Shown here in pieces: positions 2,008 through 33,118 of a stretch of DNA of 64,000 bases. Location: sequence record OQ973471.1. One strand, 5' to 3'. The translations under genes were made by a program, and so were the position numbers. This DNA comes from Escherichia phage AV101. Under the pieces are notes generated by a model. That model had not been told where the DNA came from. It worked only from the letters and a program-made list of their open reading frames with translations, and ran no database searches. The first letter of the stretch is position 1; each line of letters begins with the position of its first letter.

Positions 2008-2331
2008 TTATTTGCGCAGGGCAACCACGAGTTCAGAGAGTTCACCCATGGTCGGGTCATCGCCTTTACTACCTAGCCACCCGTCGTCGATTTCGACCTG
2101 AAACTCTTCTTCGAGGTCCATTACAATTTCGATAGCGTCCAGTTCATCACCGCCGAGGTCTTTCTTGGTACGGAGGCCAGCCAGCTTGTCCAGGGCGTCC
2201 TCGTTCTGAGATGCCACGTCGTCCAGCAATTTGCGCTTGTCATCGTCACGCCACAGATCCATATTCAGATTGTCGGTGGCGTACTGAGCCAGATGACGCA
2301 TGACTTCAACATATGTTGGTTTACTGCTCAT
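2008..2331 (-). CDS. acyl-carrier-protein-like protein with Glu in place of the phosphopantetheine-attachment Ser
   Basis: DLGGDELDAIEIVMDLEEEF aligns to the ACP motif [20 protein letters not shown]; acidic helix-II pattern retained; GGGAGAAG RBS. Confidence 0.6.
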   Translation of the reverse strand: MSSKPTYVEVMRHLAQYATDNLNMDLWRDDDKRKLLDDVASQNEDALDKLAGLRTKKDLGGDELDAIEIVMDLEEEFQVEIDDGWLGSKGDDPTMGELSELVVALRK

Positions 2332-2342
2332 GCTACTTCTCC

Positions 2343-2368
2343 CAAAGAAAGGCGGGTTGCCCCGCCCG
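2343..2368 (-). terminator. rho-independent terminator
   Basis: Hairpin GGCGGG-TTGC-CCCGCC followed by TTTCTTTGGG on the minus strand. Confidence 0.5.
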
Positions 2369-2373
2369 TTGGA

Positions 2374-4575
2374 TTAGATTTTGATTTCTTTCTCTGTCAG
2401 TTCGGCAGTGACCTTGTACTTCACGCCATCCACTTCAACTTCCATGGTGGACTCTTCCAGGTCGAGGTCGGTGAACCAGCCGTGGCCAGCAACGATACCA
2501 TACACCACTTTAGACAGTGTCTTGTTCAGGGCACGGACTTCGGTGATGGCCGCCTTGGCAGCAGCGTCGATCCAGTTTTCGATCAGCTGTTTCTGTAAGG
2601 CTTCAGGCACGGCAGTGATCATAGGAGACTTCACGAATGCTTCGTACTCTTTCAGAGCATTGGCGATGAACAAGTCACCAGCATTGAGTTTCTTGTTCTC
2701 GGCAATCTTCTTCTGTACCGCTGCGATAGACGGTAGAGATGAAGCGCCAGCGATCTTCACGTTCAGCTCACGGCTCATGTAGAAGTCGGTAGACTCTTTG
2801 GTCTCAGTCTTCGGTGAGAAGCCGTAATCGCGGATGCCGTAGGAGGACAGGAACTCGGCCGCCTCAGCGCCGTACTGTACTGCCAGGCCTTTGGCGTTAC
2901 CCTTACCAACCAGGGCGTCTCGATAGAACTTCAGCACCTTCTGCTTGCCTTTCAGGGCTTCCAGACGGACATTATCCGCAAAGAACTGAGCAGCACTGAT
3001 GTTCTTGACCATGGCGCGGTTGACCAGCGGTACGCTTTCCAGGTTCAGGACAAACACTTCCGGACCACCAAACACGTGGACGCCCATTTCGATCAGCTTT
3101 TGTACAACTTCGATATCAGCCTTGAACGGCAGAGTCTTCACGTTAATGATACCGTCTTTGACGATGGTGTAGTTGCGCCACTGGAAGGTGTCCAGTTCTT
3201 CAGGTAGACCAAACTTCTTCTGTGCGAATTCAGGCACAGCCACAGTACCGTGTTGAATTGTACGCACACTGATGTTCGGGCGCTCGGAGTTATAGACCAA
3301 ATCACTGATTGGCACAACACCCAGATCGTTGGTAGGTTCGAACGTCGGGTTCCACTCTTCGTGTTCTGCCAGCTTGAGAGCCAGGGCTTTACGCTCTTCT
3401 TTGGACTGAGCATTCGCGATCTGTTCTGCCAGCTTGTCTTCGGTGTCGTCGGTTTTCTGCACAGTACCGCGCCCGATACTCTTATAGGAGAACATCGGAT
3501 GCTTGGTAGCAACAGGCACACCAGCTTCAGCCAGGTACGTCAGCACATCAACGACGGTCGTCGCATCTTCAGCCGGAACCAGGTCATAGTCAATACCGTC
3601 AACACCGCGCAGCTGGTCGTCAACGATGGCCTGGGTCAGATCGTTCTTGATGTTGGAATAGTCCTGCTTGGTGAAGCAGTTGCTGTACTGTTTGATGAAG
3701 CGGACGTCGCCCGTCTTCTTCAGCGCAGCCCAAACCAGATCTGCGTCCATAGTGTGTACACCGTAGAACGCCAGCACGTATGCCGCCTGGATGTCCGTCA
3801 GGCTATCCATCTGGTCGATCATGTTAGGGTTTACAACCCACAGCTTGGTGACGCTCTCAGGGATGCTCACATAGCCGACCGGGTGAGAGTCATCGTCCTG
3901 TACTGCCAGCACGGTTGCCACACCGTTTTCGACGTAGATGGCATGGGTGTAGATGACTGGGACATCAACAACCACCTTCGGCACTGAAGACTTCAGTACG
4001 TTTTCCAGCTCGGTCTGATATTCGGTCTGGCCTTCGGCAAACACGTGAGTCGCGCCAGAGCGCTCGGACATCAGAGCCAGCAGTTCGCGGTTACAGTGCC
4101 AGCCGTATTCGATAAATGTAATGTTATCGAAAGCAAATGGCAGGGTCTCAGCAACCAGTAGAATTTCGTTGGTACGCCAGCAGTTGTCATACCCGTCAGT
4201 CATAAATGCCAGGTTGTTGACGTAGCCAGGTTTCTTCAGGTCACGCGCAGTATCCATCGCCAGTTTCAATGGCTCAACGAAACCAGTACAGCCGGATGGT
4301 TGCAGGAAACGGTCGATCAGTTTGTTCAGCTCGCTCAGGTCAGACGCAGCACTAACCTGGCGGCCAGCGAACACAGTACCAAAGTCGCCTTTGGAGGAGA
4401 AATACAGAACGCTCACAGTGTCTTCCGGCTTCACCAGGGATGGCAGGTTCTCCTTCAGGTGCTTGCGGACTTCAGGGAGCGCACGGTACATAGAGCCGGA
4501 AATGTCTACAACGATTACATGGTTGGACGGAGCAGCAGTCGCAACCGCATTCTTAAATTCTAATGATTCAATCAT
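2374..4575 (-). CDS. von Willebrand factor A (vWA) domain protein, about 733 aa
   Basis: N-terminal MIDAS-type motif VIVVDISGSMY (DxSxS) with downstream T/D positions; start taken at MIESLEF with AAGAGAA upstream; about 530 aa of unassigned C-terminal sequence. Confidence 0.6.
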   Translation of the reverse strand: MIESLEFKNAVATAAPSNHVIVVDISGSMYRALPEVRKHLKENLPSLVKPEDTVSVLYFSSKGDFGTVFAGRQVSAASDLSELNKLIDRFLQPSGCTGFVEPLKLAMDTARDLKKPGYVNNLAFMTDGYDNCWRTNEILLVAETLPFAFDNITFIEYGWHCNRELLALMSERSGATHVFAEGQTEYQTELENVLKSSVPKVVVDVPVIYTHAIYVENGVATVLAVQDDDSHPVGYVSIPESVTKLWVVNPNMIDQMDSLTDIQAAYVLAFYGVHTMDADLVWAALKKTGDVRFIKQYSNCFTKQDYSNIKNDLTQAIVDDQLRGVDGIDYDLVPAEDATTVVDVLTYLAEAGVPVATKHPMFSYKSIGRGTVQKTDDTEDKLAEQIANAQSKEERKALALKLAEHEEWNPTFEPTNDLGVVPISDLVYNSERPNISVRTIQHGTVAVPEFAQKKFGLPEELDTFQWRNYTIVKDGIINVKTLPFKADIEVVQKLIEMGVHVFGGPEVFVLNLESVPLVNRAMVKNISAAQFFADNVRLEALKGKQKVLKFYRDALVGKGNAKGLAVQYGAEAAEFLSSYGIRDYGFSPKTETKESTDFYMSRELNVKIAGASSLPSIAAVQKKIAENKKLNAGDLFIANALKEYEAFVKSPMITAVPEALQKQLIENWIDAAAKAAITEVRALNKTLSKVVYGIVAGHGWFTDLDLEESTMEVEVDGVKYKVTAELTEKEIKI

Positions 4576-4885: not shown

Positions 4886-6550
4886 TCAGATTTGTGAGGC
4901 CAGTTCTGTCACCAGAGGAGCGGCACGGACACGCGCATCTTCCAGCGTTTGGGTGTTGAAGAACTCGCCATCACGATACACCAGCTGGTGCTGGTTGTCG
5001 GCGTCTTGCACCTGATCAAAGGTGATACCGTCAACCAACACTAGTTTACCCTGAGAGTCTTTAATGACTTTAAGGAAACCACGCGCAGACTTTTTAGTCC
5101 CGCCTTTATCGGTCTTCGGCTCTTTGAAGATCTCACGGAATTCACCGTTCACTTTACCAGCCGTGGCTTTCACTGCTGTGCCAGTACTGTCACGGGTGTT
5201 CATCTGGTAGGTGTAGGAACCGATACCGAACACCACGTTGATGGAAGCGAAGTTCCGGTCAGCCAGACGGCTAAAGATCTGGTCTTCACGCGACAGGGTG
5301 ATAGAATCACCGTAGATCAGGCCGATGTGCTCATCCAACAGGAAGTGCCCAGTTTCAGTCTGGGTGCCACCAAAGATCTCCCACAGGCGCTGGATAGAGC
5401 CGACCGCTTCTGAACGGCTGATGATATTACGGTCATCTGCCATCAGAGAGTTGATCGTGCCTTCGCCTGTGATCAGGTGATAGGTGTTCGTCTCTTCGAT
5501 GTGGATGACTTCGGTGCTGCTGGACACGCCGCTGATGTTCAGCGTAGCGCGGTCTTTGAACCCCTCGATACGGTAGCCGCCGACGATGTGCACAGGGTCA
5601 CCAGAGTCAGGGCGGATCACGACTTTACCATTGCGCGCCATGATAATGTCTTTCAGGCGAGGCAGATAGTCGTCGATGACCTGCCAGTAATCCCACGCAT
5701 CAGACACGATGCTGACGATGCCATCAGGATACACGTCCTGCACCAGGCGGCGGAAGGTTTCGAATTCGCCATCCTTCGTGCCCATACACATCACGGCGTG
5801 TTCGGTAGCCGCAACAGAACCAGCAACGACATAATCTTCGTCGATGTCTGCGCCATAATACTCTTCTACGAAGTCCAGGGCAGGGTTGGTGTCGGTGCCT
5901 TTGAAGAACACCAGATGACCGGAACCGGAAGACGCGGCGTCATGCCACCCGCTCATACCACGGAAGGAGAAGTCGTGGCCTTGGTAGTCGATGAACCAAT
6001 GGTCCGGTGATACTCCCGTAGCGAGGGCAGCTTTCACCATCAGTGCCTTGTAATGCAGAGCGATGGTGGCGTTCGTCATCGGCTTCCAGATCTCAGAGCT
6101 GAACACAGTCTCCAGATAGTTGGTCAGCCAGTAGAACTCCGGCAGGGTATTGAACATCACATACACCGGAACACCATACGGACACATGGTGCCTTCAGGC
6201 AGCGCACGGACTTCGATAGGCAGGTAGCCGAGGTCATGCAGGGCTTCAATATGCTCTGTGCCGACGCGGCCTGGACCCAGGACTTTGTTCATGCGACGGG
6301 CATACTTCTTCAGCACCTTGGTCTTCGGGCGCTGGAAGAATGCTTCGTCAAACAGTTCGTGGAACCAGGTCATGAAGCCCTGGATACCCCAGACCACCAC
6401 GCCGTTCTTCGGCAGGTGAGAGTTGAAAAGTTTGTTAGAGCGCGGAGTTCCGTTGGAGAACACCAGCTCACTGCCTTCAGGGAACTGATAGATGTGCCCC
6501 GATTTGTAGAAGTCGATCGCATGGATTGGGTCTAAGTGGCGCATGCTCAT
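4886..6550 (-). CDS. nicotinamide phosphoribosyltransferase family protein (Nampt/NadV-like; possibly Namat of an NAD+ reconstitution pathway)
   Basis: 554-aa protein with strong Nampt-family resemblance across its length (MSMRHLDPIHAIDFYKSGHIYQFPEG... GHDFSFRGMSGWHDAASSGSGHLVFFKGTDT); 4-nt overlap with the upstream PRS-like gene. Confidence 0.85.
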   Translation of the reverse strand: MSMRHLDPIHAIDFYKSGHIYQFPEGSELVFSNGTPRSNKLFNSHLPKNGVVVWGIQGFMTWFHELFDEAFFQRPKTKVLKKYARRMNKVLGPGRVGTEHIEALHDLGYLPIEVRALPEGTMCPYGVPVYVMFNTLPEFYWLTNYLETVFSSEIWKPMTNATIALHYKALMVKAALATGVSPDHWFIDYQGHDFSFRGMSGWHDAASSGSGHLVFFKGTDTNPALDFVEEYYGADIDEDYVVAGSVAATEHAVMCMGTKDGEFETFRRLVQDVYPDGIVSIVSDAWDYWQVIDDYLPRLKDIIMARNGKVVIRPDSGDPVHIVGGYRIEGFKDRATLNISGVSSSTEVIHIEETNTYHLITGEGTINSLMADDRNIISRSEAVGSIQRLWEIFGGTQTETGHFLLDEHIGLIYGDSITLSREDQIFSRLADRNFASINVVFGIGSYTYQMNTRDSTGTAVKATAGKVNGEFREIFKEPKTDKGGTKKSARGFLKVIKDSQGKLVLVDGITFDQVQDADNQHQLVYRDGEFFNTQTLEDARVRAAPLVTELASQI

Positions 6551-7401
6551 TTTACACGTCCTGTATTTTCAGTTTTGAAAGGAAGCCCGTCGGCGGTGAT
6601 GTTCTCCCACCAGACAGTGTCGGCATACACAGCATCATAGATCCCGTCGAAAACAGAGAGACCTTTGCTGAAGATGCCATGGGTAACGAAGAGCGTCATG
6701 TGCTTAGGCTTGTGCTTCTGAAGCTCTTTGCCTAACTCAACGAACGTGCGCCCACCGTCGCAGATATCATCGACCACCACCAGATAGCGGTCTTTGATCA
6801 GTTCAGGGTTTGTAACACTCACCCCAATGATCTCACCAGTCTTGGTATCGCGGTTCTTATGGCCGTAGACAACAGGAACACCGTCCAACGATAGGCTGAG
6901 GGCTTCGGTCTTCTTAGTCGCGCCGCCGTCAGGAGCTACCAACACAGCGTTGTTCCCACGGATGAACCAGCCCAGATACTGACGCACGATGTAATCTTGC
7001 GGGACAACATGAACGTTGTTGATCAGAGAAGACACAACATGGCTGTGAGGATCTTTGATTACCACGCGGTCAAAGTTCATGCTATTGATGAATTCAGCCG
7101 CCCACTTCACAGACAGAGGCTCACCGAAGTCACAATGGCGGTCCTGGCGAGCATACGGGAAGTAAGGGATATACGCATGGAATGTCGTCAGACGGTCCAC
7201 GTTACTCAGACCACGAACGGCGTTTACCAGAAGCGCCAGCTCAATGAAGTCGGCTGATGATTTGATGTGAGCATCAATCACCACGTTCTGAACGTGGCCG
7301 ATAGGGATACCAGACTTTTGGATCTTGATATGTTCCTCACCACCTGGGAAGGTGAAGTGTTTGTAGAACACATCTTGGTCGTTCAATTTCAAACGAAACA
7401 T
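6547..7401 (-). CDS. ribose-phosphate pyrophosphokinase family protein (PRPP-synthetase-like; possibly ADP-ribose pyrophosphokinase Adps)
   Basis: PRPP-binding loop YLVVVDDICDGGRTF and PRS-like N-terminal half; GAGG RBS; co-oriented and overlapping with the Nampt-like gene. Confidence 0.8.
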   Translation of the reverse strand: MFRLKLNDQDVFYKHFTFPGGEEHIKIQKSGIPIGHVQNVVIDAHIKSSADFIELALLVNAVRGLSNVDRLTTFHAYIPYFPYARQDRHCDFGEPLSVKWAAEFINSMNFDRVVIKDPHSHVVSSLINNVHVVPQDYIVRQYLGWFIRGNNAVLVAPDGGATKKTEALSLSLDGVPVVYGHKNRDTKTGEIIGVSVTNPELIKDRYLVVVDDICDGGRTFVELGKELQKHKPKHMTLFVTHGIFSKGLSVFDGIYDAVYADTVWWENITADGLPFKTENTGRVK

Positions 7402-11052: not shown

Positions 11053-11277
11053 TCAGACGATCTTACCACCGTCACAAGGCCGAGTATCACCGGAGTTGTA
11101 TGCCAGCATCCCCTGCATCAACAAACGTCTTGGCCCAGAAACTGATTTCTGTTTCCTCAACGTACTGCAGAACCGAGTAGTGCCTGGGTAAGGAGTGTAC
11201 ACGAGACGACCTTGCATACGAGCTTCCAGTAGGAATTCATCTGTGGCTTTGCGTAACTTGAATAATTTCCAGCTCAT
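11053..11277 (-). CDS. hypothetical protein (doubtful)
   Basis: 74-aa ORF with ATGA overlap to the HNH gene stop; no other support. Confidence 0.25.
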   Translation of the reverse strand: MSWKLFKLRKATDEFLLEARMQGRLVYTPYPGTTRFCSTLRKQKSVSGPRRLLMQGMLAYNSGDTRPCDGGKIV

Positions 11278-12203
11278 TTTTCACCCTTGTATCTTTTTAA
11301 CCATTTGACGCATTTTAATGGTTCCCACCCTTTATTGAAACGTTCGATAATGCTGTTTGTCGCATTAAAAGCCTTCAAATCCTTTGTTCCGTACACATGC
11401 ATGAGGGCTTCCGCTCTTTTCATCGTCTTCAAAGATTGCATAAGCAAATCAGCTTTTGACCAATACACATCATTTTCGGGGTTCCATTTCGCTTTCTCCC
11501 AAGGCAACTTCACTAACATACCTTTCTGGGCGTTTTCTTTCTGTTTGGCTCGTTGTTCCGGTGTGAAAGAATTGGTTAAGTCCTTCCCATAATTGGGATT
11601 GAGTTTCCCGAGTTTTGCTTGTCTAGAACGCTCCGAAAATTGCTTCAAATCTGTATTGGCGCGACGCCGCTCTAAAACCTGCCTTTTATATTCAGGGTCA
11701 GAAGCCATTCTTTCATGGATTTTCATCAATCCTTTGGTAATTTTCTTGACTTGCTCTGGAGTTCTCTTATATCCATATTGGGGGTTATTCTTTCCTCTCC
11801 TTCCGTACATTGGGTTGTCTTTACCCACAAACCGAGAAACCCCTTTCCATTGTAAAGATAGTTGTTCGCTGAATTTAATTCTGAAACTTTCATATAAATG
11901 AGAATTAAACCGAATCCCCGATTTATTTCTTCTTCCCCCCTTTCTCATAGCCACCACAGCATACACCATTCTCGTGTTTGGGAAAGCCAATGCCAAGCAC
12001 AAATGCACAAGATAATGTTGCCTGCCTGTTAATCGAACCAAATTGTTCTTATCTTTAAAATATTCAGGGAACATGCTCTTGGGAAGGATGTGGTGTAATT
12101 CAGTGTAGTCACCATCAGAATATTTGAAAGATTGAACCATCCTCAAATACTTCTTGATGAAATGCGGTTTACCGCCTTTAGAAACCAACAATTCATAAAA
12201 CAT
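11274..12203 (-). CDS. HNH homing endonuclease with NUMOD3-like repeats
   Basis: HNH core ELHHILPKSMFPEY...NLVRLTGRQHYLVH; repeated GKDNPMYG / GKNNPQYG / KLNPNYGKD motifs; AT-rich codon usage unlike neighbours. Confidence 0.8.
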   Translation of the reverse strand: MFYELLVSKGGKPHFIKKYLRMVQSFKYSDGDYTELHHILPKSMFPEYFKDKNNLVRLTGRQHYLVHLCLALAFPNTRMVYAVVAMRKGGRRNKSGIRFNSHLYESFRIKFSEQLSLQWKGVSRFVGKDNPMYGRRGKNNPQYGYKRTPEQVKKITKGLMKIHERMASDPEYKRQVLERRRANTDLKQFSERSRQAKLGKLNPNYGKDLTNSFTPEQRAKQKENAQKGMLVKLPWEKAKWNPENDVYWSKADLLMQSLKTMKRAEALMHVYGTKDLKAFNATNSIIERFNKGWEPLKCVKWLKRYKGEK

Positions 12204-12264: not shown

Positions 12265-13464
12265 TTACTTTTTAAATAAATTTAGCAGGTTTTTAGAACC
12301 AGATGTCGTCGCTTTAGGTTGTCCTTCCCCATCGTAACCAACCTTCCCGCGCGGTTTTTTGCCTTGGTTGACGGCTTCTACACAACGGGTATATTTCGAC
12401 AATTCACAAAAGTGGTTCTCTAATTGTTGAACATTCATACACTGATCCCAAGGCTCTTCGGCCGACCAAAATTCTTCCCTGTTATACCCAAGAGGACCAT
12501 AAACTGCGTCCTGATTATCCCGTAGCCAGAAGATGCATTCTTCGTGGGTCATACCGTCTTTGTTCAGGAACATCAGGTCGATGCCTGCGCGACAGCCTGG
12601 TCCAGCAACCGTGAAGTGGTTCTCGCTGAAAGGATATCCAGGAATGTACGTGAAATCAACCCAGATCTGATAGGCCAGGAATGGACCAAGCCCTTCGATG
12701 TCGTCATACATGCGCTGGTATACTTCCAGAGGAGTACCAAGGCGCAGCAAGTCATGGAAATAGTTTGGATACTTGTTGACGAATGCCTTCAGAGAACGGA
12801 TAACACGCATCGGCATGTATGGTTCCCATCCCTCGATGGTATATTCACCAGGATTCTCTTCGACCAGCTTTTTGGCGACCTTGTAGTCCATCTCGTCCAC
12901 AATACCCTGGCCAACGCGATACACTTTCACCATCATCCCACCGAAGCACTGCTCCTTGTGGTTGACAACCATCTCAGGGAAAGCCAGGCATTGCTTCAGG
13001 CCGCCCGTGTTGAAGGCATTGGTGAATACCTTACCACCGTCGGCCTCGAACTTCTGAAGTCGTTCGCGGGTTGCATCGAGGTTGATCTCGGCGAATTCTT
13101 TGATCGTCATCGCGCCGCCGATAGCCTGGATTGGATCCCAGAGGTTGAACATGCGGAACATCACGCAGTTGAACATCTTGTCGGCCATACCCAGAGCATC
13201 GTTGTTGACGATGTTGTTGATCAGGTTGAGAGACTGTCTGTCGTGCTCTCTCCGGACGTTACAGAATTTAACCTGGCGTAGTATGGGATTATCAGTCCAA
13301 GGAGCAGGAAGGCGCTGGACGTCCTTCTTGACGTGGATCTGATAACGATCGCGCATCCATTCGTAAGACAGGCTGGTATGGGTCGGACTGAGAACCGGTT
13401 TGGCCGACTTTATCTTTTCTTCACGGACACCGCAGTACGGGACGTCCAGGGCTTTATCTTTCAT
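12265..13464 (-). CDS. hypothetical protein (399 aa)
   Basis: ORF with AAGAGGA RBS; sits where T4 has DNA polymerase gene 43 relative to regA. Confidence 0.6.
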   Translation of the reverse strand: MKDKALDVPYCGVREEKIKSAKPVLSPTHTSLSYEWMRDRYQIHVKKDVQRLPAPWTDNPILRQVKFCNVRREHDRQSLNLINNIVNNDALGMADKMFNCVMFRMFNLWDPIQAIGGAMTIKEFAEINLDATRERLQKFEADGGKVFTNAFNTGGLKQCLAFPEMVVNHKEQCFGGMMVKVYRVGQGIVDEMDYKVAKKLVEENPGEYTIEGWEPYMPMRVIRSLKAFVNKYPNYFHDLLRLGTPLEVYQRMYDDIEGLGPFLAYQIWVDFTYIPGYPFSENHFTVAGPGCRAGIDLMFLNKDGMTHEECIFWLRDNQDAVYGPLGYNREEFWSAEEPWDQCMNVQQLENHFCELSKYTRCVEAVNQGKKPRGKVGYDGEGQPKATTSGSKNLLNLFKK

Positions 13465-13532: not shown

Positions 13533-14405
13533 TTAATCGATACGGGTCAGTTGGGTGATAGATGATTGCACTGGGCTGGCCACATAGATACGGACGTTGG
13601 CTTTCCATTCACCCCAGATCAACGGCAGAGTTGGGAAGTTGTCTTCATTGAAAACAAACACGGGAATGTAGCTCTCGACTGTTTCGCCAGAGAACGCCTG
13701 AAAGCCCATCTTGGTGTATCCCATGATCTCGTCAATAAAATCGAACGGAGCGAAGGCAACACCAGCGTGTTCGTTAGAACCGAGCTGGCCTGGAATGGCC
13801 GTGCCCGTCAGAATGATTTCGGTGATCTGGCGCTTAGGCTCGGTGGTCAACATATCAGAGAAGTCAGGCTCTTTGAAGGTTGCCATGTTCTTCAGGAACT
13901 TGCCAGCCGGGTACTCTTTGCCGTCGACAGTGATGGTGTCCACCACTTTGATGCACGCCTGAGGGAATTCCCCTTCGATGCGTAGACTTTCGCGTGGGAA
14001 TCCTTTGTTATAGTAATACTCCAGCGCTGGAACAACTTCACCTTCATTGCGAACGAACTTGCTCATGTTAGAGGCATACACGCGTTGTAGGCATTCGTCA
14101 CCGTCGAAACCAGCAATATGAGCCACACCGTCGTTGACAGTGGTGATGTCGCCCTGGGCATCCATGATCTGGCGCATAATGTCTTTGATGTCGACAACAA
14201 CGGGTTCTTTCAGGACTCGCGGAGATGCAGTGAACTCAATTTTCACCTCGTGGTCGAAATACACCGCTTCCAGCAGTTCACGGGTTTCTTCCAGCACCAG
14301 TTTCGCCTGATTGCGGATCTTACCAAAGTCAGGCGATGTGACGTCGCCCTTTGCATTACCGAAAGCCAGATTCAGATTCACGTTCTTAGAAAATGTAGTT
14401 GTCAT
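13533..14405 (-). CDS. hypothetical protein (290 aa), possible MazG-like NTP pyrophosphohydrolase N-terminal region
   Basis: LVLEETRELLEAVYF resembles the EExxE..EA helix of MazG/HisE-type enzymes; weak, by eye only. Confidence 0.45.
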   Translation of the reverse strand: MTTTFSKNVNLNLAFGNAKGDVTSPDFGKIRNQAKLVLEETRELLEAVYFDHEVKIEFTASPRVLKEPVVVDIKDIMRQIMDAQGDITTVNDGVAHIAGFDGDECLQRVYASNMSKFVRNEGEVVPALEYYYNKGFPRESLRIEGEFPQACIKVVDTITVDGKEYPAGKFLKNMATFKEPDFSDMLTTEPKRQITEIILTGTAIPGQLGSNEHAGVAFAPFDFIDEIMGYTKMGFQAFSGETVESYIPVFVFNEDNFPTLPLIWGEWKANVRIYVASPVQSSITQLTRID

Positions 14406-16414: not shown

Positions 16415-17083
16415 TTACTCAATCTGTGCGCCGACGAAGTAATTGATCGTCGCGTCGGATGATTGGAAGTTCACCATTTGTAGATCAGCACATGCACGCA
16501 GAGTGTAGTTGCCTTCGATCATTTTCAGGTTGGCAACATCCAGTGGCATTACGAAGTCCGGCAGCGCGGTTTCGCCCAGCTCAACAGTGTAGTTGTTGGA
16601 GTTGTCCAGGGTAGTGGTGGTTGCAACCAGGCGAGTTTTGCCACCCTGAGCAACCAGGCGCACAGTCTTGTGTCCGAGGGTAGAACAGGCGCGGGTCAGT
16701 TCTTTCATCTTCTCTGGAGTGATGATCGCTTCAAAGTCGACAGACGGCAGTTCAATAGTATCAGCCGGGACAACCGTGAGTTCTTTAGCAGAACGCCAGA
16801 ATTGCAGCTGAGAACTTTCGCCTTTCAACAGGATGTAGTCCTGATGGAATTCGGCTTTGGCACCTTTGAAGGAAGGTAGGCGCTGGATGGCCAGAAGTTT
16901 GGTCAGGTCCAGAATCGGGAACTCAAACGGGAAGTCTTCTTCGATCTGCGCCACGGCGATCACAGTAGAAGAATCATTAATACTGCGCAGCATCTTGCCC
17001 GGTGTCAGAACGATAGATGGGTTGATGGTCTCAAAGTTGGCCAGCAACTGAAGTGTACGTTCGGAGAGAGTGATCTCTTGCAT
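16415..17083 (-). CDS. sliding clamp (T4 gp45-like)
   Basis: TLQLLANFETINPSIVLTPG and VANLKMIEGNYTL resemble T4 gp45 (TTALLKNFATINSGIMLKSG, MANMKMQPGNYKL); 222 aa. Confidence 0.7.
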   Translation of the reverse strand: MQEITLSERTLQLLANFETINPSIVLTPGKMLRSINDSSTVIAVAQIEEDFPFEFPILDLTKLLAIQRLPSFKGAKAEFHQDYILLKGESSQLQFWRSAKELTVVPADTIELPSVDFEAIITPEKMKELTRACSTLGHKTVRLVAQGGKTRLVATTTTLDNSNNYTVELGETALPDFVMPLDVANLKMIEGNYTLRACADLQMVNFQSSDATINYFVGAQIE

Positions 17084-19323: not shown

Positions 19324-19334
19324 GGGGTATTTAG
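19324..19334 (-). promoter_or_regulatory. late-promoter-like motif CTAAATACCCC (minus strand)
   Basis: About 25 nt upstream of the helicase start; same motif recurs upstream of structural genes. Confidence 0.4.
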
Positions 19335-21088: not shown

Positions 21089-21359
21089 AATAGCACCTTT
21101 GCTGTGGAGATATTTTGTGACCCTGATGCGCGGGATCAGTAGATTGTTGTTGGCATGCTCGATGCTCTTGTTTACGAGCTGTCGCATCTTTGTCACGCCA
21201 ATAATTTCTGTTTCCGAACTCTGGAACCCAGAAGTGCGCACTGTACCTGTGACGTTGTCGGCCAGCGTTCCCACTTGTAACAAGGGTATGCTGGACATCA
21301 TCGTGCAAGAGTTCCAGCCCTTCCAGAAGCTCGTACCTTTAGGTTGCTTTGATGAGAAC

Positions 21360-21767
21360 ATGAGCACCCTCAAGCCATACTGGAAGACCACAATTCCTCT
21401 CCTGCGGCATGGCGATGAAGGGAAGATTCCATACCTATCAGCAAGTATTTATTACTCTCAGAATAACAGCATCATTATCACTTTTAATCCATCATTCCAT
21501 GCCAAGCTGAAGCAACACATGGTTGGGCGACTGGATACAACATCAGATATAATCGTGACGTTCAAGATCATGAATGACTCAGATAAACCAGTACGAATCG
21601 CAACTCAGGGTGTGTTCGTTAACAACGACGCGGTTGGAAATGGGATGAGTATCTTTGAAGTTAACCCAGGGGGAACGATCTTGATCAGACTGAGTAATGT
21701 GGGTGTGAACTCCCTGCTGTTGGATGGCATCGAACCAGTGGGAGTTCTTCCGGCGCGGGAGCACTGA
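21360..21767 (+). CDS. hypothetical protein (plus strand, AT-rich)
   Basis: Only the C-terminal part of ORF 20952-21767 is protein-like, from MSTLKPYWKTT; convergent with the next minus gene. Confidence 0.4.
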   Translation: MSTLKPYWKTTIPLLRHGDEGKIPYLSASIYYSQNNSIIITFNPSFHAKLKQHMVGRLDTTSDIIVTFKIMNDSDKPVRIATQGVFVNNDAVGNGMSIFEVNPGGTILIRLSNVGVNSLLLDGIEPVGVLPAREH

Positions 21768-22496
21768 TTACTTCAGCGCGTTCTTCAGATTATCGGAACC
21801 AATGCTGTTGATGACACCTCCGGCGCAGATATCTTTCGCCCACTCTGATATCACGTTGGCAAAAGAGAAGTTAAGACACTTACCAACCATGTCTTGGATA
21901 TGGGCTAACTCTGCTGCAATACCGTTCGTGATGTCCTGAGCAATAGAGGCTACTGATGCGACAGCAGTGTCGATGGCCTGAGTAACTTCAGCAGCCAGTG
22001 CCCGAATAGCATCAAGACCAGCACTGACACCCTGAGCTACCAACTCAGCCAGCTCATTCATCTTGTTTGTGATAGTTGTGAGAACACTTTGCATGGTGTT
22101 GATCCACTGTTTGCCGAGGTTCTGAATAACCCCAAATGCATTATTGATCAGATCACAGTTGTTCGGTTCTCGACCTATAGACTTCAGGGCGGACTTATAT
22201 GACACAGATGTACCGATGCGGGAATATGCCTCGTTCACTGACTGGTAGCCATAGTTGTTCAAAGTAGTGATGCTGTCGTTGGCTGAGTTAAACATTGCTG
22301 TAGATTCGTTGAGTTTGGCTGTAGTCAACCCACCTGCCGTCAGCGCTTCCTGAATCTGCGTATTTCCGGTGTTAGCCAGTGACGCTGTAGTCGCCTTACC
22401 ACTGGTGATTAACCCCTGCGAGGCGCTGCTGAGGGACGGGAGAGGATTGGTAAAGGCGTTGCCCTGCGATAGGGCGTCATAGATCTGTGCGTTCAT
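21768..22496 (-). CDS. putative virion structural protein (Ala/Ser/Thr-rich)
   Basis: Start at MNAQIYD preceded by CCCTAAATACCCC late-promoter-like motif. Confidence 0.5.
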   Translation of the reverse strand: MNAQIYDALSQGNAFTNPLPSLSSASQGLITSGKATTASLANTGNTQIQEALTAGGLTTAKLNESTAMFNSANDSITTLNNYGYQSVNEAYSRIGTSVSYKSALKSIGREPNNCDLINNAFGVIQNLGKQWINTMQSVLTTITNKMNELAELVAQGVSAGLDAIRALAAEVTQAIDTAVASVASIAQDITNGIAAELAHIQDMVGKCLNFSFANVISEWAKDICAGGVINSIGSDNLKNALK

Positions 22497-22510
22497 AAGA
22501 AAATACCCCC

Positions 22511-22521
22511 ATGGATGATGG
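22511..22521 (-). promoter_or_regulatory. late-promoter-like motif CTAAATACCCC with flanking inverted repeat
   Basis: Motif and its complement form a palindrome around 22500-22535. Confidence 0.4.
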
Positions 22522-22541
22522 GGGTATTTAGGGATCATGGT

Positions 22542-22715
22542 AGTTTGTAAACGAAGTTGGACCAGAACTTACGAACAAACTTCTTGACATAAACCATTCG
22601 GTTGGCGTATTCCCCATCCTTCAGGTCATTGTAGGTCTCGATCCCTACCGCGCCCAAGAAGTACGCCGTGAAGATATAGCAGAACAGATTGATGACGACA
22701 AACATGATGTATCTC
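22542..22715 (-). CDS. small membrane protein (57 aa, below the ORF-track cutoff)
   Basis: Manual translation MFVVINLFCYIFTAYFLGAVGIETYNDL...; GGAG 7 nt upstream of ATG. Confidence 0.35.
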
Positions 22716-22746
22716 CGCTGTGTGTACTCAAATTATTTATGATATG

Positions 22747-23169
22747 TTACAAAAGGCGCTTGGTCTTCGGCTTACCCATTAGAGTGATATCCACAGGGAG
22801 GCCAGCTTTCTTGCAACGGTTGATCATGTCCAGGGTGCCAGTGGACGAACCATCCCACATCGCAATCGGATACACTTCCAGCTTGGTCTGCCTGACGAGA
22901 TCCAATGCCTTGTCTAACATGTCCTGATTGCGTTTGTTGCCCATCCCTTTCCCATACTTTTCATAATAGCTCGGAGGTATTGGCATAGGAGTGATATGAA
23001 CATAATTGATTTCAGCCCAATCACGGCAAATCGTGTCGACACCCGTGGCCTCACCCTCAATCAGTGTATAGACCTCACGAGGATCCAAGAGTTCGTCCAG
23101 CTTGGCGAATACCTTATCCCGCTCGGTGATTGAGCGGGAACCCGTAATGAGAACGATATACTTCTTCAT
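22747..23169 (-). CDS. SLOG-superfamily (DUF2493/YpsA-like) Rossmann-fold nucleotide-binding protein
   Basis: Paired glycine-rich motifs ITGSRS and IEGEATGVDT typical of SMF/DprA-LOG proteins; start at MKKYIVLITG. Confidence 0.5.
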   Translation of the reverse strand: MKKYIVLITGSRSITERDKVFAKLDELLDPREVYTLIEGEATGVDTICRDWAEINYVHITPMPIPPSYYEKYGKGMGNKRNQDMLDKALDLVRQTKLEVYPIAMWDGSSTGTLDMINRCKKAGLPVDITLMGKPKTKRLL

Positions 23170-23174
23170 AGAAC

Positions 23175-23519
23175 TCACAGCGCCCCAAGATTGCCGATTA
23201 CGTACAGGGAGCACAGAGGAGTGCCTGACGAACGCGGTTCGATCGTCATCCCGCTCAGGCGGATCAGTTCCAGTAAGCCGTCAGTGGTCCGATACGCGCG
23301 TGTCGAACCGTTCGGTCGATATAGCTCCAGCTCAGTTCGCCCTTCCTTTATTGCATTGCGAATGCGAGTGAACACGCTGTGGTCGCCGAACTTCTGTTTC
23401 AGAATATCCAGTTTGGTGGTCAGGCGGCGCGTTTTGCGTGGCTTGCGCTCACTCGGCTTTTCGAATTTGACGATGTGGGGGATCTCCACGGATTTGTTCA
23501 GTTTGGTGTCTGCTGCCAT
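23175..23519 (-). CDS. hypothetical basic protein
   Basis: 114-aa ORF with a Lys/Arg-rich segment; upstream hairpin. Confidence 0.45.
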   Translation of the reverse strand: MAADTKLNKSVEIPHIVKFEKPSERKPRKTRRLTTKLDILKQKFGDHSVFTRIRNAIKEGRTELELYRPNGSTRAYRTTDGLLELIRLSGMTIEPRSSGTPLCSLYVIGNLGAL

Positions 23520-23588
23520 GGTAAAGTCCTCTATTTGTAGGGGATAGGGTATGCGGTTAACATACCCTGTTCAAAGGTTTAGAACAAA

Positions 23589-23918
23589 TCACAGATCCTG
23601 ACACTGATCGCAGTATTCATCGTATGTGAAGGACTCATCACACAGGCCGTCCACGATCATAGCCGCTTTTGCTTCAGAGAAGATCGCGAGAGTGATATCA
23701 TTGTCATCCAAGTCTTGACGGATGAACGGTTCATCTTCAGGGCGATTGAAGAAGACTTCAGCAGGTTCGATATAGAACTCCGCTTCAAGATCTTTGCGGG
23801 TTTGATGGCCAGTGATTCCCATCACCCACTGGCGCATTTCAGAGATGGTTTCCAGCTGCGGGTTGCTCAGCACGTTGGTTTTGGTTGCGTCGAATGCTAC
23901 AAAGCCTTTAAAAGTCAT
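23589..23918 (-). CDS. hypothetical acidic protein
   Basis: 109-aa ORF. Confidence 0.45.
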   Translation of the reverse strand: MTFKGFVAFDATKTNVLSNPQLETISEMRQWVMGITGHQTRKDLEAEFYIEPAEVFFNRPEDEPFIRQDLDDNDITLAIFSEAKAAMIVDGLCDESFTYDEYCDQCQDL

Positions 23919-24019
23919 GATATATTTCCTTCATTTCAGAGTCAGTGTTGTGCTGCTTATGGAATGAAGTATACGGGGTTTATTGAAGAAGTAAACCCCG
24001 TATTCAACTTTTATTGAAT

Positions 24020-24256
24020 TTATTTAAAACGGTCAGGAAGGGTGTCGTGAACCTCGGCGCTCAGCACCAGAAACTTACCATCCGTCGTTGGGAAGCAATA
24101 GTCTTTCTTGATGTGACGCAAATGTTCAGCTACAGCTGCCACGCAGTCATCTGTCACGTCAGTCTTCTCACCAACCCACATGCTGGTTTTGGTGTTCAAC
24201 CTGCCCTGGAATATAGTACCAGTGAGAGGACTTGTGCCGATCTTTTTGATAATCAT
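24020..24256 (-). CDS. hypothetical protein
   Basis: 78-aa ORF. Confidence 0.4.
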   Translation of the reverse strand: MIIKKIGTSPLTGTIFQGRLNTKTSMWVGEKTDVTDDCVAAVAEHLRHIKKDYCFPTTDGKFLVLSAEVHDTLPDRFK

Positions 24257-24264
24257 GTTTGACC

Positions 24265-24708
24265 TCAGTTGTTAATGCGGAACAGTTGTGGATAACCACC
24301 TGGATGCCCTTCTCCGGTCACGAAGACCTCGTACCGGGCACCTTTAACCAAACCGGGCAAATTGCCTGAGTCGAGTAGATATCGGATTTTATCCATAGTA
24401 CCCATCCAGGACTTAGCAGGTTCAGCTTCAGCCTCTCCACGATTGAGGACGAGTTCACCTTCAGAATAATACTTCCCGCTGTCCTTCATGTAGTACAGCT
24501 TGATATGGATATACTGAGGGGATGGGACCAAACGCCAGCCGTCATCAATCAGATCCTGGCGATCATTATCCAGGGACTGGTAATCGATCTCACCAGACGC
24601 CAGACCATAGCTGCGCATGTAGCGGAACTTCTCAACACGGTCTTTCACGTCAGAGATGAAGAACTCCTTCGTGGCTGGACTGATGAAAATGTATTTCTCT
24701 TTTGACAT
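24265..24708 (-). CDS. hypothetical protein
   Basis: Start at internal ATG MSKEKYIFISPATK. Confidence 0.45.
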   Translation of the reverse strand: MSKEKYIFISPATKEFFISDVKDRVEKFRYMRSYGLASGEIDYQSLDNDRQDLIDDGWRLVPSPQYIHIKLYYMKDSGKYYSEGELVLNRGEAEAEPAKSWMGTMDKIRYLLDSGNLPGLVKGARYEVFVTGEGHPGGYPQLFRINN

Positions 24709-24725
24709 GATATAGTTCCTTCCTT

Positions 24726-25049
24726 TCAAAGAATGATGTGTTCGTCGATATCGGACTGCGTTGCAATCTCCCAGCGGACGATGTTCTCGGTTGTGATGAA
24801 ATCACGGTTCAGGTGAGAGGCTGGTACATACACCATCGTATTGACCATGAAGTAGCGCTGCTCATTGTTCCAGGAGTCAACATAAGCCTCAATAAGGCAC
24901 ACTTCGATCACTTCGCCTTTCGGATTCTTCACAGTCTTTTTCAGATACATGACACAGCCCTCGGTAGTAGACGGGGCAATAATACCTCTCACCCCGTTAT
25001 TGAAATGTTCTTTTAGTTCAAGACATATTTGATCAGTCCACAATTCCAA
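24726..25049 (-). CDS. hypothetical protein
   Basis: 107-aa ORF; start uncertain. Confidence 0.4.
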   Translation of the reverse strand: MELWTDQICLELKEHFNNGVRGIIAPSTTEGCVMYLKKTVKNPKGEVIEVCLIEAYVDSWNNEQRYFMVNTMVYVPASHLNRDFITTENIVRWEIATQSDIDEHIIL

Positions 25050-26485
25050 ATCCTGACCAGCCCGGCTTCGGTTGCTAACTGGCTTTCTGTTTTGCCTTCT
25101 ACGTCATACCCCATGCGAGCAAATGAACCTTTTCTGAAACCGAATTTGTGCTCACGCATAAATGTGCCAGGCTTGTGATATTTGTAGTCTGGCTTCTGTA
25201 CTTCCTCTTCTACGAATCCGTGGGATAGGTAAATGTTGGACAACCTGCTTGCAACACACCTATCCCCAAAGGAATAGATTTTGGTGTCGGCAAATTTTCT
25301 TCTGAAGTGTGAAAGAAGTTTACTGAATGCCCCGTGGCAATCATTAGAGGCAAATCTGACTAATTCCAGGCCATCTTTCCTTTTAGTGAATAGCATCACG
25401 GCTTGTATGACCCCACTCTTGTCAATTAACGATAAATGGTGGGTAGAAGAAACGGAACCTTGTATGTGGTGGTTGTCTAAAAACTCCCTCAAGCCGCTTA
25501 TATTCCCCCAAACGACTTTGTGTTGGCGAGCATATGACGCAGGCGTTTTAATGCCAAGTTTAGCTTTCAGAAGAGATTTGACCACTTCCTGTTTCTCAAC
25601 CCATTCATCTTCCCAGATGTGAATCAACTGGATACCCTGAGATTCACATATTTCAGTCTTTTCCAGGTGATAATGTTTCTCTTTAAAAACTTCTGAATGC
25701 CAGTACAGGCCATTAAATTCAATCGCCAATTTGTGTTCAGGGCAATAGATATCCAGTTGTTTACCGGATAATATACTGTAATCAGAAACAGTGTTTACAA
25801 CTCCCATTGAGGTGAGAAACTCGGATATTTCCTTTTCATAAGAAGATTTCTTGTTCCTGATAGAACCATTGCTGAACAACGCACGTTTTAGTATGTTCGA
25901 GTTTTTCATAGGGTTGTCAACACCATAACGTTCTTGTAACGTTGCCAACGCCTTCTCCCTCACACCAGGTAATTGTAGTGTGGAGCAGCTTCCGTATTTG
26001 GATATATTCGAAGTCTCTATGACTTTCCGACCAATCCCACCTTTACACATAGAAACCTGATAACATTCTTCAGAACAATATGTTCTGTAATCTTTATTAT
26101 TGATGTAAAAGTTGGTTTCCTTGGAACACACCGGGCATATTTTCACGGCTCTATTGTACAGCCAAGCTGTGACTTTACAAGCCAAATCTTGTAGGGTGTT
26201 GTGGGTATTGGCGAACACTAAAAGGTCTACATTGATGTGCTTCATAAGCAGTTCAGATTTGCATTTTTGGATATCCAATTTGTTGTTCTTGGTAAACATA
26301 TATTTGTAGAAAAATTGGCGATATGATTCCTCGTCAGATAATTCATTCACTGCTTCAAGGAAACCTTCCGGGAGGTTCTTTAGGGTGTTCGATGCGAAGG
26401 TCTTGCAAGCATCTGAACAAAATTTCTTATCTTTCCTGGATGCTTTGAACTGTTCATGGCAGACACTACAGATTACCTGATACAT
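25013..26485 (-). CDS. putative free-standing homing endonuclease: N-terminal zinc ribbons plus PD-(D/E)XK (Vsr/DUF559-like) nuclease core
   Basis: CSVCHEQF..CSDAC and CPVCSKE..CSEEC ribbons; QLDIYCPEHKLAIEFNGLYWHSE is a PD-(D/E)XK signature; AT-rich; own GGAGGAGAA RBS and TATACT -10-like box. Confidence 0.55.
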   Translation of the reverse strand: MYQVICSVCHEQFKASRKDKKFCSDACKTFASNTLKNLPEGFLEAVNELSDEESYRQFFYKYMFTKNNKLDIQKCKSELLMKHINVDLLVFANTHNTLQDLACKVTAWLYNRAVKICPVCSKETNFYINNKDYRTYCSEECYQVSMCKGGIGRKVIETSNISKYGSCSTLQLPGVREKALATLQERYGVDNPMKNSNILKRALFSNGSIRNKKSSYEKEISEFLTSMGVVNTVSDYSILSGKQLDIYCPEHKLAIEFNGLYWHSEVFKEKHYHLEKTEICESQGIQLIHIWEDEWVEKQEVVKSLLKAKLGIKTPASYARQHKVVWGNISGLREFLDNHHIQGSVSSTHHLSLIDKSGVIQAVMLFTKRKDGLELVRFASNDCHGAFSKLLSHFRRKFADTKIYSFGDRCVASRLSNIYLSHGFVEEEVQKPDYKYHKPGTFMREHKFGFRKGSFARMGYDVEGKTESQLATEAGLVRIWNCGLIKYVLN

Positions 26486-26534
26486 AATTATTCTCCTCCA
26501 TATGGTATCTAGTATAACCTGTTCGATAATATGA

Positions 26535-26562
26535 ACAAATAAAAACCCCGCCGAAGCGGGGT
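26535..26562 (-). terminator. rho-independent terminator (UUCG tetraloop on the minus transcript)
   Basis: AAAAACCCCGC-CGAA-GCGGGGTTT downstream of the capsid gene. Confidence 0.6.
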
Positions 26563-26589
26563 TTGTCAGGGTTAAGGACAACTGTTCTA

Positions 26590-32419: not shown

Positions 32420-33118
32420 TTACACAATTCTAATTAGCTGCCAACCCGTCGTATTCAAACGCTCTGCGGTCGCAGTTTTCCTATGATACACAGACGGTGG
32501 TGGAACTGGAATACCCTTGTCGATGTAATCATAGAGTGCTGAATATTTAAGTCCCAACCTCTCCACATATTCACGACAGTTCCCGTGGATTTCGTGTTCT
32601 TCGCCGGAAGGAGATACCAATTTGAATCGCTTGGCATTGGAGTTCTTGGATCCGGTTCTTGCTTTGGCGAATTCAGACAGGCTCTTTGAGAAAGAACGCT
32701 TGACCCCGACCTTGCAGTGTATTATCTCTCCTGTCGACCATCTAGGGTCATCACAGTCTACGAGGCCGATACGCTCTCCGGTCGATGCATCAATAGCGCC
32801 GGTCTTGCCAGTGAATGTTGCACCATCACCGCCCCAAGTTTTGTTGTACCCTTTCTGAGTTGACATGTGGGTGCCATGCTGCTTGATCAGGATGATCTCT
32901 AATTCTTTAAGATCTTTTATGGACTTGGTCTGGGCAATCACTTGGAACGAGAATGATTCTTCACCGTGCTTGCGAATAGCTTGATGGATACCGTAGTCGG
33001 AACCATTTCGAGCGCTGTTACAATGTTCCCACCACCTATGGCTTGGGTCTCTTGTGGTGATACCGATATACGCTTTCCGATTGGCGAGATTTGCAATTTT
33101 ATAAACACTTCCGATCAT
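32420..33118 (-). CDS. GIY-YIG homing endonuclease (Seg-like)
   Basis: VYKIANLANRKAYIGITTRDPSHRWWEH plus downstream Arg/His/Glu positions; inserted between sheath and tube genes. Confidence 0.8.
   Translation of the reverse strand: MIGSVYKIANLANRKAYIGITTRDPSHRWWEHCNSARNGSDYGIHQAIRKHGEESFSFQVIAQTKSIKDLKELEIILIKQHGTHMSTQKGYNKTWGGDGATFTGKTGAIDASTGERIGLVDCDDPRWSTGEIIHCKVGVKRSFSKSLSEFAKARTGSKNSNAKRFKLVSPSGEEHEIHGNCREYVERLGLKYSALYDYIDKGIPVPPPSVYHRKTATAERLNTTGWQLIRIV

Follow-up and report, generated by a model that had tools for sequence, protein, structure and literature searches.

In the recombination mediator DprA, single-stranded DNA (ssDNA) is bound through two motifs, 'G-S/T/A-R' and 'F/L/Y-x-x-R-N/D', and LOG proteins are contrasted with DprA by the motif 'PGGxGTxxE' (PMC3950713). 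In BcThsA, E403, the Glu of 'GTxxE', binds the ribose hydroxyls of 3' cyclic ADP-ribose (3'cADPR). A phage protein described as 'Smf/DprA Rossmann', ORF83, has been found experimentally to inhibit type III Avs (EVADES preprint, 10.1101/2025.06.06.658234). T4 gp33, gp55 and gp43 bind the sliding clamp through C-terminal epitopes that closely resemble and can replace one another (PMC2988020). Here we describe a SLOG gene at 22747..23169 (minus strand) in a 64,000-nucleotide stretch of Escherichia phage AV101 (OQ973471.1; hereafter the window), whose product joins a pocket with DprA-like features to a C-terminal tail like that of gp33.

The gene runs from ATG at 23169..23167 to TAA at 22749..22747 and encodes 140 amino acids with the N-terminus MKKYIVLITGSRSITERDKV. 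A preliminary description, made from the letters alone, had placed an open reading frame (ORF) with two glycine-rich motifs here; its coordinates are exact, and the protein carries both motifs (ITGSRS, residues 8-13; IEGEATGVDT, residues 37-46). A longer, GTG-started ORF of 155 amino acids was rejected as the gene, because the homologues begin at the MKK/MSK methionine and its extra codons run into the gene upstream; the only homologue record annotated at that length is P0009. The proposed SLOG/DUF2493 membership was confirmed, with agreement well above chance level. The protein matches Pfam PF10686 YAcAr ('YspA, cpYpsA-related SLOG family', formerly DUF2493) with E=1.3e-10 and 41.4 bits, above the curated gathering threshold of 28.2 bits, and PHROG 289 with E=4e-39; all homologues listed except three carry PF10686. 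An AlphaFold2 model built with 20 homologues as input has a predicted local distance difference test score (pLDDT) of 92.8 and a predicted template modelling score of 0.85, with the last residues less confident, and its top structural matches are SLOG proteins only (YpsA, TRPM2, ShosA, ThsA-SLOG, DprA and LOG). It shows the Rossmann-like alpha/beta fold common to YpsA, DprA, LOG, ThsA-SLOG and TRPM MHR1/2, and the Gly-rich loops after strands 1, 2 and 4 (TGSRS, GEATGVD and SSTGT) are present and conserved. An unrelated Rossmann family, which the preliminary description had named as the result that would overturn it, was not assigned in any of the profile or structure comparisons. In the profile search that it had proposed, the SLOG-family profile PF10686 matched, and the Pfam models for DprA and for LOG (Lysine_decarbox) did not. 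NCBIfam and PADLOC scans of the protein returned nothing meaningful, and it does not belong to the Pfam YpsA (DUF1273) family. Since the Pfam, PHROG and AlphaFold2 evidence agree, both the observation and the family call are confirmed, and the gene product is established as a YAcAr (DUF2493) SLOG protein with a single domain.

We tentatively favour the reading that this protein binds ssDNA or a nucleotide unit in the manner of DprA, is early and non-virion, and is docked by a gp33-type tail, with the sliding clamp as the probable docking site. Three parts of this picture are new in this analysis: the predicted early three-gene unit, the failure to detect the protein in the published virion proteome of the related phage LIMEstone1, and the gp33-like tail.

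The pocket residues are those of the wider family. Among 144 distant relatives, G10, R12, G39, A41, G43, D45, W69, G73, A76, G77, R80, N81, M84, S109, G111 and T112 are conserved at 85-100%, and 14 of these 16 family-invariant residues (GxR, GxAxGxD, W...G.AG..RN..M and SxGT) are kept here, the exceptions being W69 to Y and A76 to M. On the minus strand, the codons for G10-S11-R12 in the loop after strand 1 lie at 23134..23142 (G in 99% and R in 97% of the relatives), and those for the GxAxGxD loop after strand 2, G39-E-A41-T-G43-V-D45, at 23035..23055 (G39, G43 and D45 invariant, A41 at 87%). The R80-N81 pair in the long helix (22927..22932) is 99% conserved, and the SxGT loop after strand 4, S109-T-G111-T112 (22834..22845), has S at 89%, G at 99% and T at 98%. 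In a profile alignment, the GxAxGxD loop falls on DprA GLAKGID / GGALGVD. When an 80-member YAcAr profile was searched against PDB sequences, its four best matches were DprA chains (3uqz with E=0.006; 5mll, 4ljr and 4ljk with E~0.007-0.008), and the same broad profile places G-S-R on H. pylori DprA G50-T51-R52; a narrow profile of the clade gave no match in the PDB sequence search, so that DprA was reached by the broad profile alone. G10-S11-R12 thus corresponds to the first DprA motif, 'G-S/T/A-R', and residue equivalences beyond this loop are given by motif order, not by structural superposition.

The second element is the tail, G132-KPKTKRLL-140, encoded at 22750..22776 (minus strand), which is predicted to be disordered and is specific to Ackermannviridae. 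In the AlphaFold2 model, residues 131-140 have a mean pLDDT of 55, and residues 137-140 fall below 50. The last nine residues are invariant or nearly so in the clade (K-P-K-[ST]-K-R-L-[LI]) and absent from other YAcAr proteins. Because eight of the nine tail codons differ synonymously between the window and Kuttervirus, selection acts on the tail peptide and not on the DNA. In the complete LIMEstone1 genome (HE600015), two of 731 ORFs end in K[ST][KR][KR][LI][LIVFM], a pattern framed after both tails had been seen: the SLOG gene (..KPKTKRLL) and gp33 (..LKSKKLV), against a background expectation of 0.0076 among 201 gene ends. The SLOG tail KPKTKRLL is accompanied by the gp33 tail LKSKKLV in Agtrevirus and Limestonevirus, by LKSKKLI in Kuttervirus, by LKSKKIL in Taipeivirus-like genomes and by KRSKKLDMFHGVL in Nezavisimistyvirus; one 157.8-kb contig has KPKSKRLI in the SLOG protein and KPRSKKLI in gp33.

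The Ackermannviridae gp33 is a true homologue of T4 gp33 (Pfam PF16805, E=3e-18; BLASTP against T4 gp33, E=4e-7), and its tail stands where T4 gp33 has ..TNTLDFLL. The C-terminus of Bue1 gp33, KKLDMFHGVL, links the basic tail form to the T4-type L-D-F-L. The SLOG protein is therefore a candidate clamp ligand, because its tail matches that of gp33 and T4 gp33-type tails bind the clamp. The proposed docking partner, a gp45-type sliding clamp, is encoded at 16415..17083 (minus strand), according to the annotation of relatives (processivity factor/sliding clamp) and a weak Pfam gp45-slide_C match (E=0.002). To judge from the tail sequences, recognition of clamp ligands in Ackermannviridae may differ from that in T4.

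A sigma-70-type promoter-like site found by scanning, TTTACT-16 nt-TATACT at 23968..23995 (minus strand), is predicted to open an early unit of three genes, and a putative early promoter is annotated at this site in LIMEstone1. The first gene of the unit (23589..23918, minus strand; LIMEstone1 counterpart ORF133) encodes an acidic protein of 109 amino acids with an isoelectric point (pI) of 4.1. It is followed by the gene for a basic partner of 114 amino acids (pI 10.2; 23175..23519, minus strand), directly upstream of the SLOG gene; the partner's TGA lies 5 nt ahead of the SLOG ATG. In virion mass spectrometry of LIMEstone1, ORF129 (DUF7217, 25 kDa) was detected and ORF130-137 were undetected, including ORF131, the SLOG protein. 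The late promoter motif of this phage, ACTAAATA (often ACTAAATACCCC), is the counterpart here of the T4 late promoter TATAAATA, of which the window has no copy. It has eight exact matches against 1.3 expected in the window, all on the minus strand before structural genes (starting at 19328, 28886, 35140, 39423, 45934, 51072, 53555 and 57141), and none within 21768..26500, which includes the SLOG unit. From the LIMEstone1 mass spectrometry, the upstream early promoter and the lack of the late motif in the unit, the SLOG protein is probably non-virion and early, the timing being a promoter prediction.

We then propose a model for this protein. Its pocket would take one nucleotide unit, phosphate plus base, much as the homologous DprA pocket holds one base of ssDNA, and its tail would dock it on the phage gp45 clamp, as the tails of T4 gp33, gp55 and gp43 do. 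From the proposed pocket and the proposed docking it would follow that the protein acts on DNA at clamp-loaded sites, namely forks, nicks and recombination intermediates, and it might do so jointly with the 114-residue basic partner. Its role would be that of an ssDNA- or nucleotide-binding accessory factor in replication, recombination or repair, and not of a free cytosolic sponge. A more specific version, somewhat unlikely as it stands, is that the protein is a new type of sliding-clamp client, in which gp45 is the anchor of a DprA-like single-nucleotide-pocket module and the tether is a tail that was copied from, or is shared by, the late-transcription coactivator gp33. As such a client it would guard or read ssDNA at replication forks, or a base there that is modified or ADP-ribosylated, and it could compete with gp33 for the clamp. 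If true, this would give a first mechanistic foothold for the large DUF2493 family and might explain how ORF83, a possible relative, blunts Avs immunity.

The gene contexts of relatives lean towards DNA transactions, not uniformly. ICP1 HelB, an SF1B helicase, carries a DUF2493 domain at its C-terminus (tblastn match under helB, E=4e-5). In the T4-like Vibrio phage K575 the family gene abuts a Dda-like helicase gene, and its product has no tail-like motif. In mycobacteriophage Expelliarmus it follows a phosphoribosyltransferase gene; a DnaB-like helicase is encoded another two genes upstream and a primase ~2.8 kb downstream. At 2248..3363 of the stretch analysed for Expelliarmus (L005), in the phage replication module, the phosphoribosyltransferase gene stands directly before YAcAr, and the two form the domain pair of the bacterial Shosta defence system (the phosphoribosyltransferase ShosT and the DprA-like ShosA). 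In a Drulisvirus-like Klebsiella phage the family gene comes after the RNA polymerase gene, and in CAjan it lies amid small genes of unassigned function; the contexts of the nearest relatives outside Ackermannviridae, P0040 and P0041, were uninformative. A bacterial (metagenomic) protein of 1099 amino acids, P0098, consists of NADAR (a DNA ADP-ribose glycohydrolase, DarT1-associated), three YAcAr domains and DUF4326, an architecture that ties the YAcAr family to reversal of DNA ADP-ribosylation.

Several observations weigh against a DprA-like clamp client. At the pocket, Gly77 stands in place of the aromatic platform (F/L/Y) of the second DprA motif, 'F/L/Y-x-x-R-N/D': R80-N81 is present, and the first position is Gly, as in 97% of the family. 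The Pfam DprA model (PF02481) gave no match to the SLOG protein at E<=1, with sub-threshold matches only in the relatives P0041 and P0087, and the E-values of the DprA matches in PDB are marginal. The pocket-side basic positions of the wider family, 42, 110 and 113, are T, T and L here; 42 and 110 are non-basic throughout the clade, and 113 is variable and occasionally K or R. At the tail, the pattern was drawn up with both tails in view, and in Nezavisimistyvirus the gp33 tail has changed and the SLOG tail has not. A single clamp motif in Ackermannviridae is not established, because the LIMEstone1 gp55 tail is acidic and T4-like, ..TQFDLDEIQEEKE (QFDLDEIQEEKE), and gp43 ends in ..KRRVNLLAMMQKKKG, while gp33 has the basic KSKKLV. 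The basic tail could merely touch DNA or bind another partner. Finally, the expression timing is predicted from promoters only, and no measured binding, activity or function was found in the literature for any YAcAr protein.

The distribution of the gene bears on every reading. An exhaustive profile search retrieved 26,510 cluster representatives of the family at E<=0.001 and 8,360 at E<=1e-10, and by tblastn the family is present in 909 of 50,697 phage records (Mycobacterium 274, Salmonella 169, Klebsiella 108, Vibrio 99, and others). Among predicted viral structures it occurs in an archaeal virus, Marseillevirus, Pandoravirus and Pithovirus. Orthologues are already labelled in UniRef and GenBank as 'YspA cpYpsA-related SLOG domain-containing protein', 'DUF2493 domain-containing protein', 'DprA-like' or 'GTP-binding domain'; the family assignment is thus correct and already public, and the SLOG gene itself is an ordinary family member. 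The phage itself is an Agtrevirus-like member of Ackermannviridae. Over the region 21700..25100, identity to Enterobacter phage fGh-Ecl02 is 97.5%, and 273 phage records match, nearly all of them Ackermannviridae, such as Agtrevirus, Limestonevirus, Kuttervirus and Taipeivirus. In annotated relatives, the block is placed between the major head protein gene and the tail-completion/uvsY genes. The SLOG protein has 268 matches of at least 60% identity, with further matches at 42-48% in Erwinia and Serratia phages; for comparison, 278 records have the capsid protein at >=80% identity and 291 have gp33. Even Nezavisimistyvirus, the most distant genus, keeps the order partner gene, SLOG, membrane protein and DUF7217. 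The SLOG gene is core and syntenic across essentially all Ackermannviridae.

This conservation is one of the points that make a counter-defence role unlikely in our view: the gene is kept in synteny in ~280 genomes and is not patchy or accessory like typical counter-defence genes. In such a role, the pocket would bind or hydrolyse a host signal or metabolite (cADPR isomers, ADP-ribose or AMP), or the protein would block a sensor such as Avs3. The preliminary description had suggested that the protein might sequester or process an immune signalling nucleotide, and the sensing of 3'cADPR by the SLOG domain of ThsA is in keeping with this; however, the equivalent of ThsA E403 is a Met in the SLOG protein. 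One lead for such a role is ORF83, for which an AMP site formed by R89, N90, T112 and D114 has been predicted and whose amoeba-virus homologues are fused to DUF4326 (10.1101/2025.06.06.658234). R80, N81, T112 and D114 of the SLOG protein reproduce its pattern R-N...T-x-D as known from the description, and the YAcAr family includes the NADAR, YAcAr and DUF4326 protein as well as giant-virus members, like the DUF4326-fused relatives of ORF83; by this residue pattern and these links, ORF83 is a candidate member of YAcAr. Predicted early expression would suit a counter-defence protein, and Salmonella, a host of such phages, carries Avs3. Moreover, the same phage has a pair of genes that look like phage NARP1 (Adps plus Namat), which counters NAD+-depleting immunity, and therefore appears to face NADase-type immunity: a Prs-like gene (Pribosyltran_N plus Pribosyltran) at 6547..7401 and an overlapping gene of the NAPRTase family (PF04095, E=3e-32) at 4886..6550, both on the minus strand. 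On the other hand, no similarity in fold or sequence was found between the protein and the known phage sponges (Tad1, Tad2, Acb2 and similar), PADLOC gave no match, and a sponge would have no need of a docking tail. The idea of an immune-signal sponge is thus not specifically supported.

The same pocket could also be that of a LOG-type enzyme: as a nucleotide N-glycosidase (phosphoribohydrolase) with AMP or another (deoxy)nucleotide as substrate, it would remodel the nucleotide pools of a phage with hypermodified thymidine. LOG-like activity has been proposed for ORF83 from an AlphaFold3 model (10.1101/2025.06.06.658234), and the invariant polar residues R12, D45, R80, N81, S109 and T112 could make an active site. 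The phage encodes a 5-hydroxymethyldeoxyuridine (5-hmdU) DNA kinase, and the corresponding gene of a relative is annotated as MazG-like. However, 'PGGxGTxxE' has no counterpart here: the segment reads G107-S-S-T-G-T-L-D-M115, the position of the Glu that is catalytic in LOG and holds the ribose in ThsA is Met here and in 79% of relatives, and position 114 offers no conserved acid, because D (52%), N (22%) and H (21%) alternate across the family. With no match of the Pfam Lysine_decarbox model (PF03641) to the protein either, we consider an enzyme of this type quite improbable. Least probable is a YpsA-like regulator that would bind a host protein in a nucleotide-dependent manner (for YpsA, the cell-division machinery) and take over host physiology. 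We thus retain, as a tentative reading, the early DprA-like binder docked by its gp33-type tail.

The thymidine genes named above, the 5-hmdU DNA kinase gene (PF18723, E=3e-79) and an adjoining gene with a MazG-like-annotated counterpart, lie at 12265..13464 and 13533..14405 (both minus strand) and make up the machinery that ViI-like phages are expected to have for hypermodifying thymidine.

The SLOG gene had been described as part of a block of small genes. The block is real (22535..25049), but it is not one transcription unit: a predicted early promoter lies within it, and late-promoter-like sites precede its last two genes. The predicted early promoter is enclosed by a perfect 10-bp hairpin at 23968..24003 (minus strand), ACGGGGTTTA...TAAACCCCGT. 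Four Agtrevirus/Limestonevirus genomes share an identical promoter and hairpin core, with a mean column identity of 93% over 131 aligned columns; because conservation is higher in this core than in the coding sequence around it, the analysis suggests a combined terminator/promoter or regulatory element. Downstream of the SLOG gene, a single-pass membrane protein of 56 amino acids (22535..22705, minus strand; PHROG 4845) is preceded by the late-promoter-like CATAAATA, where LIMEstone1 has an annotated late promoter. The next gene, at 21768..22496 (minus strand), encodes a DUF7217 protein of 242 amino acids from MNAQ..., the length of its homologues (Pfam PF23854, E=8e-91), and has its own late-promoter-like site, CCTAAATACCCC, at 22532..22521; its leader contains a hairpin, AATACCCCCAT...ATGGGGGTATT, after this site. 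A DUF7424 gene at ~21288..21767 (plus strand) is convergent with the DUF7217 gene, their stops abutting; in LIMEstone1, the counterpart of the DUF7424 gene carries a signal-peptide annotation. Upstream of the block, a strong terminator follows the capsid gene at 26564..26543. Homing-endonuclease-like genes lie on the minus strand at 25013..26485, 32420..33118 and 11274..12203, one of them (PHROG 3339, E=2e-155) between the capsid terminator and the small-gene block.

PHROG 289 ('GTP-binding domain', 500 positions) has SLOG at positions 20-146 and DUF7217 at 250-500. No genuine SLOG-DUF7217 fusion was found among the DUF7217 homologues. The apparent fusion of 475 amino acids, SP38_106 of Salmonella phage 38 (KR296692, 59288..60715), was rejected as an artefact, because the frame shifts after 'RMKK' in a genome full of frameshifts, which split its polymerase, capsid, terminase and portal genes alike. 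SP38_106 is the likely, untraced source of the PHROG 289 merge. DUF7217 was also rejected as a functional partner of SLOG, because it occurs alone in Felixounavirus and has its own late-promoter-like site, which makes it a separate late unit; in Felixounavirus its homologues, without SLOG, lie just ahead of the terminase gene. The label 'GTP-binding domain' is unsupported for both SLOG and DUF7217, and in newer annotations, such as that of vB_CECAV_050, it has now been passed on to the virion protein DUF7217.

DUF2493/YAcAr is among the most widespread small viral domains, occurring in phages, archaeal viruses and giant viruses; the Ackermannviridae version, through its proposed tail-clamp contact and ssDNA or nucleotide binding, could anchor the whole family. 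What sets the Ackermannviridae clade apart from other PF10686 proteins is an additional helical insert (residues ~89-100), a pocket surrounded by fewer basic residues, and a C-terminal tail that is both unique and invariant. In ICP1 HelB, the same family domain is fused and thus physically tied to a DNA helicase, whereas the phage AV101 protein is free-standing and has a docking-type tail instead. Compared with DprA/Smf, it is about half the size and lacks the SAM and C-terminal domains. LOG phosphoribohydrolases have a catalytic Glu that is absent here. The ThsA SLOG domain (PDB 7uxs) has, by motif alignment, Met115 as the equivalent of its E403, and ThsA carries a fused effector, in contrast to the stand-alone, single-domain phage protein. 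ORF83, compared by description alone, is likewise a small phage Smf/DprA-like Rossmann protein. With the T4 clamp epitopes, the SLOG tail shares an extreme C-terminal position, shortness, flexibility and a hydrophobic end, and it is nearly identical to the resident gp33 tail; the T4 epitopes are hydrophobic and acidic (TLDFLL), whereas the gp33 and SLOG tails of Ackermannviridae are basic with two hydrophobic residues.

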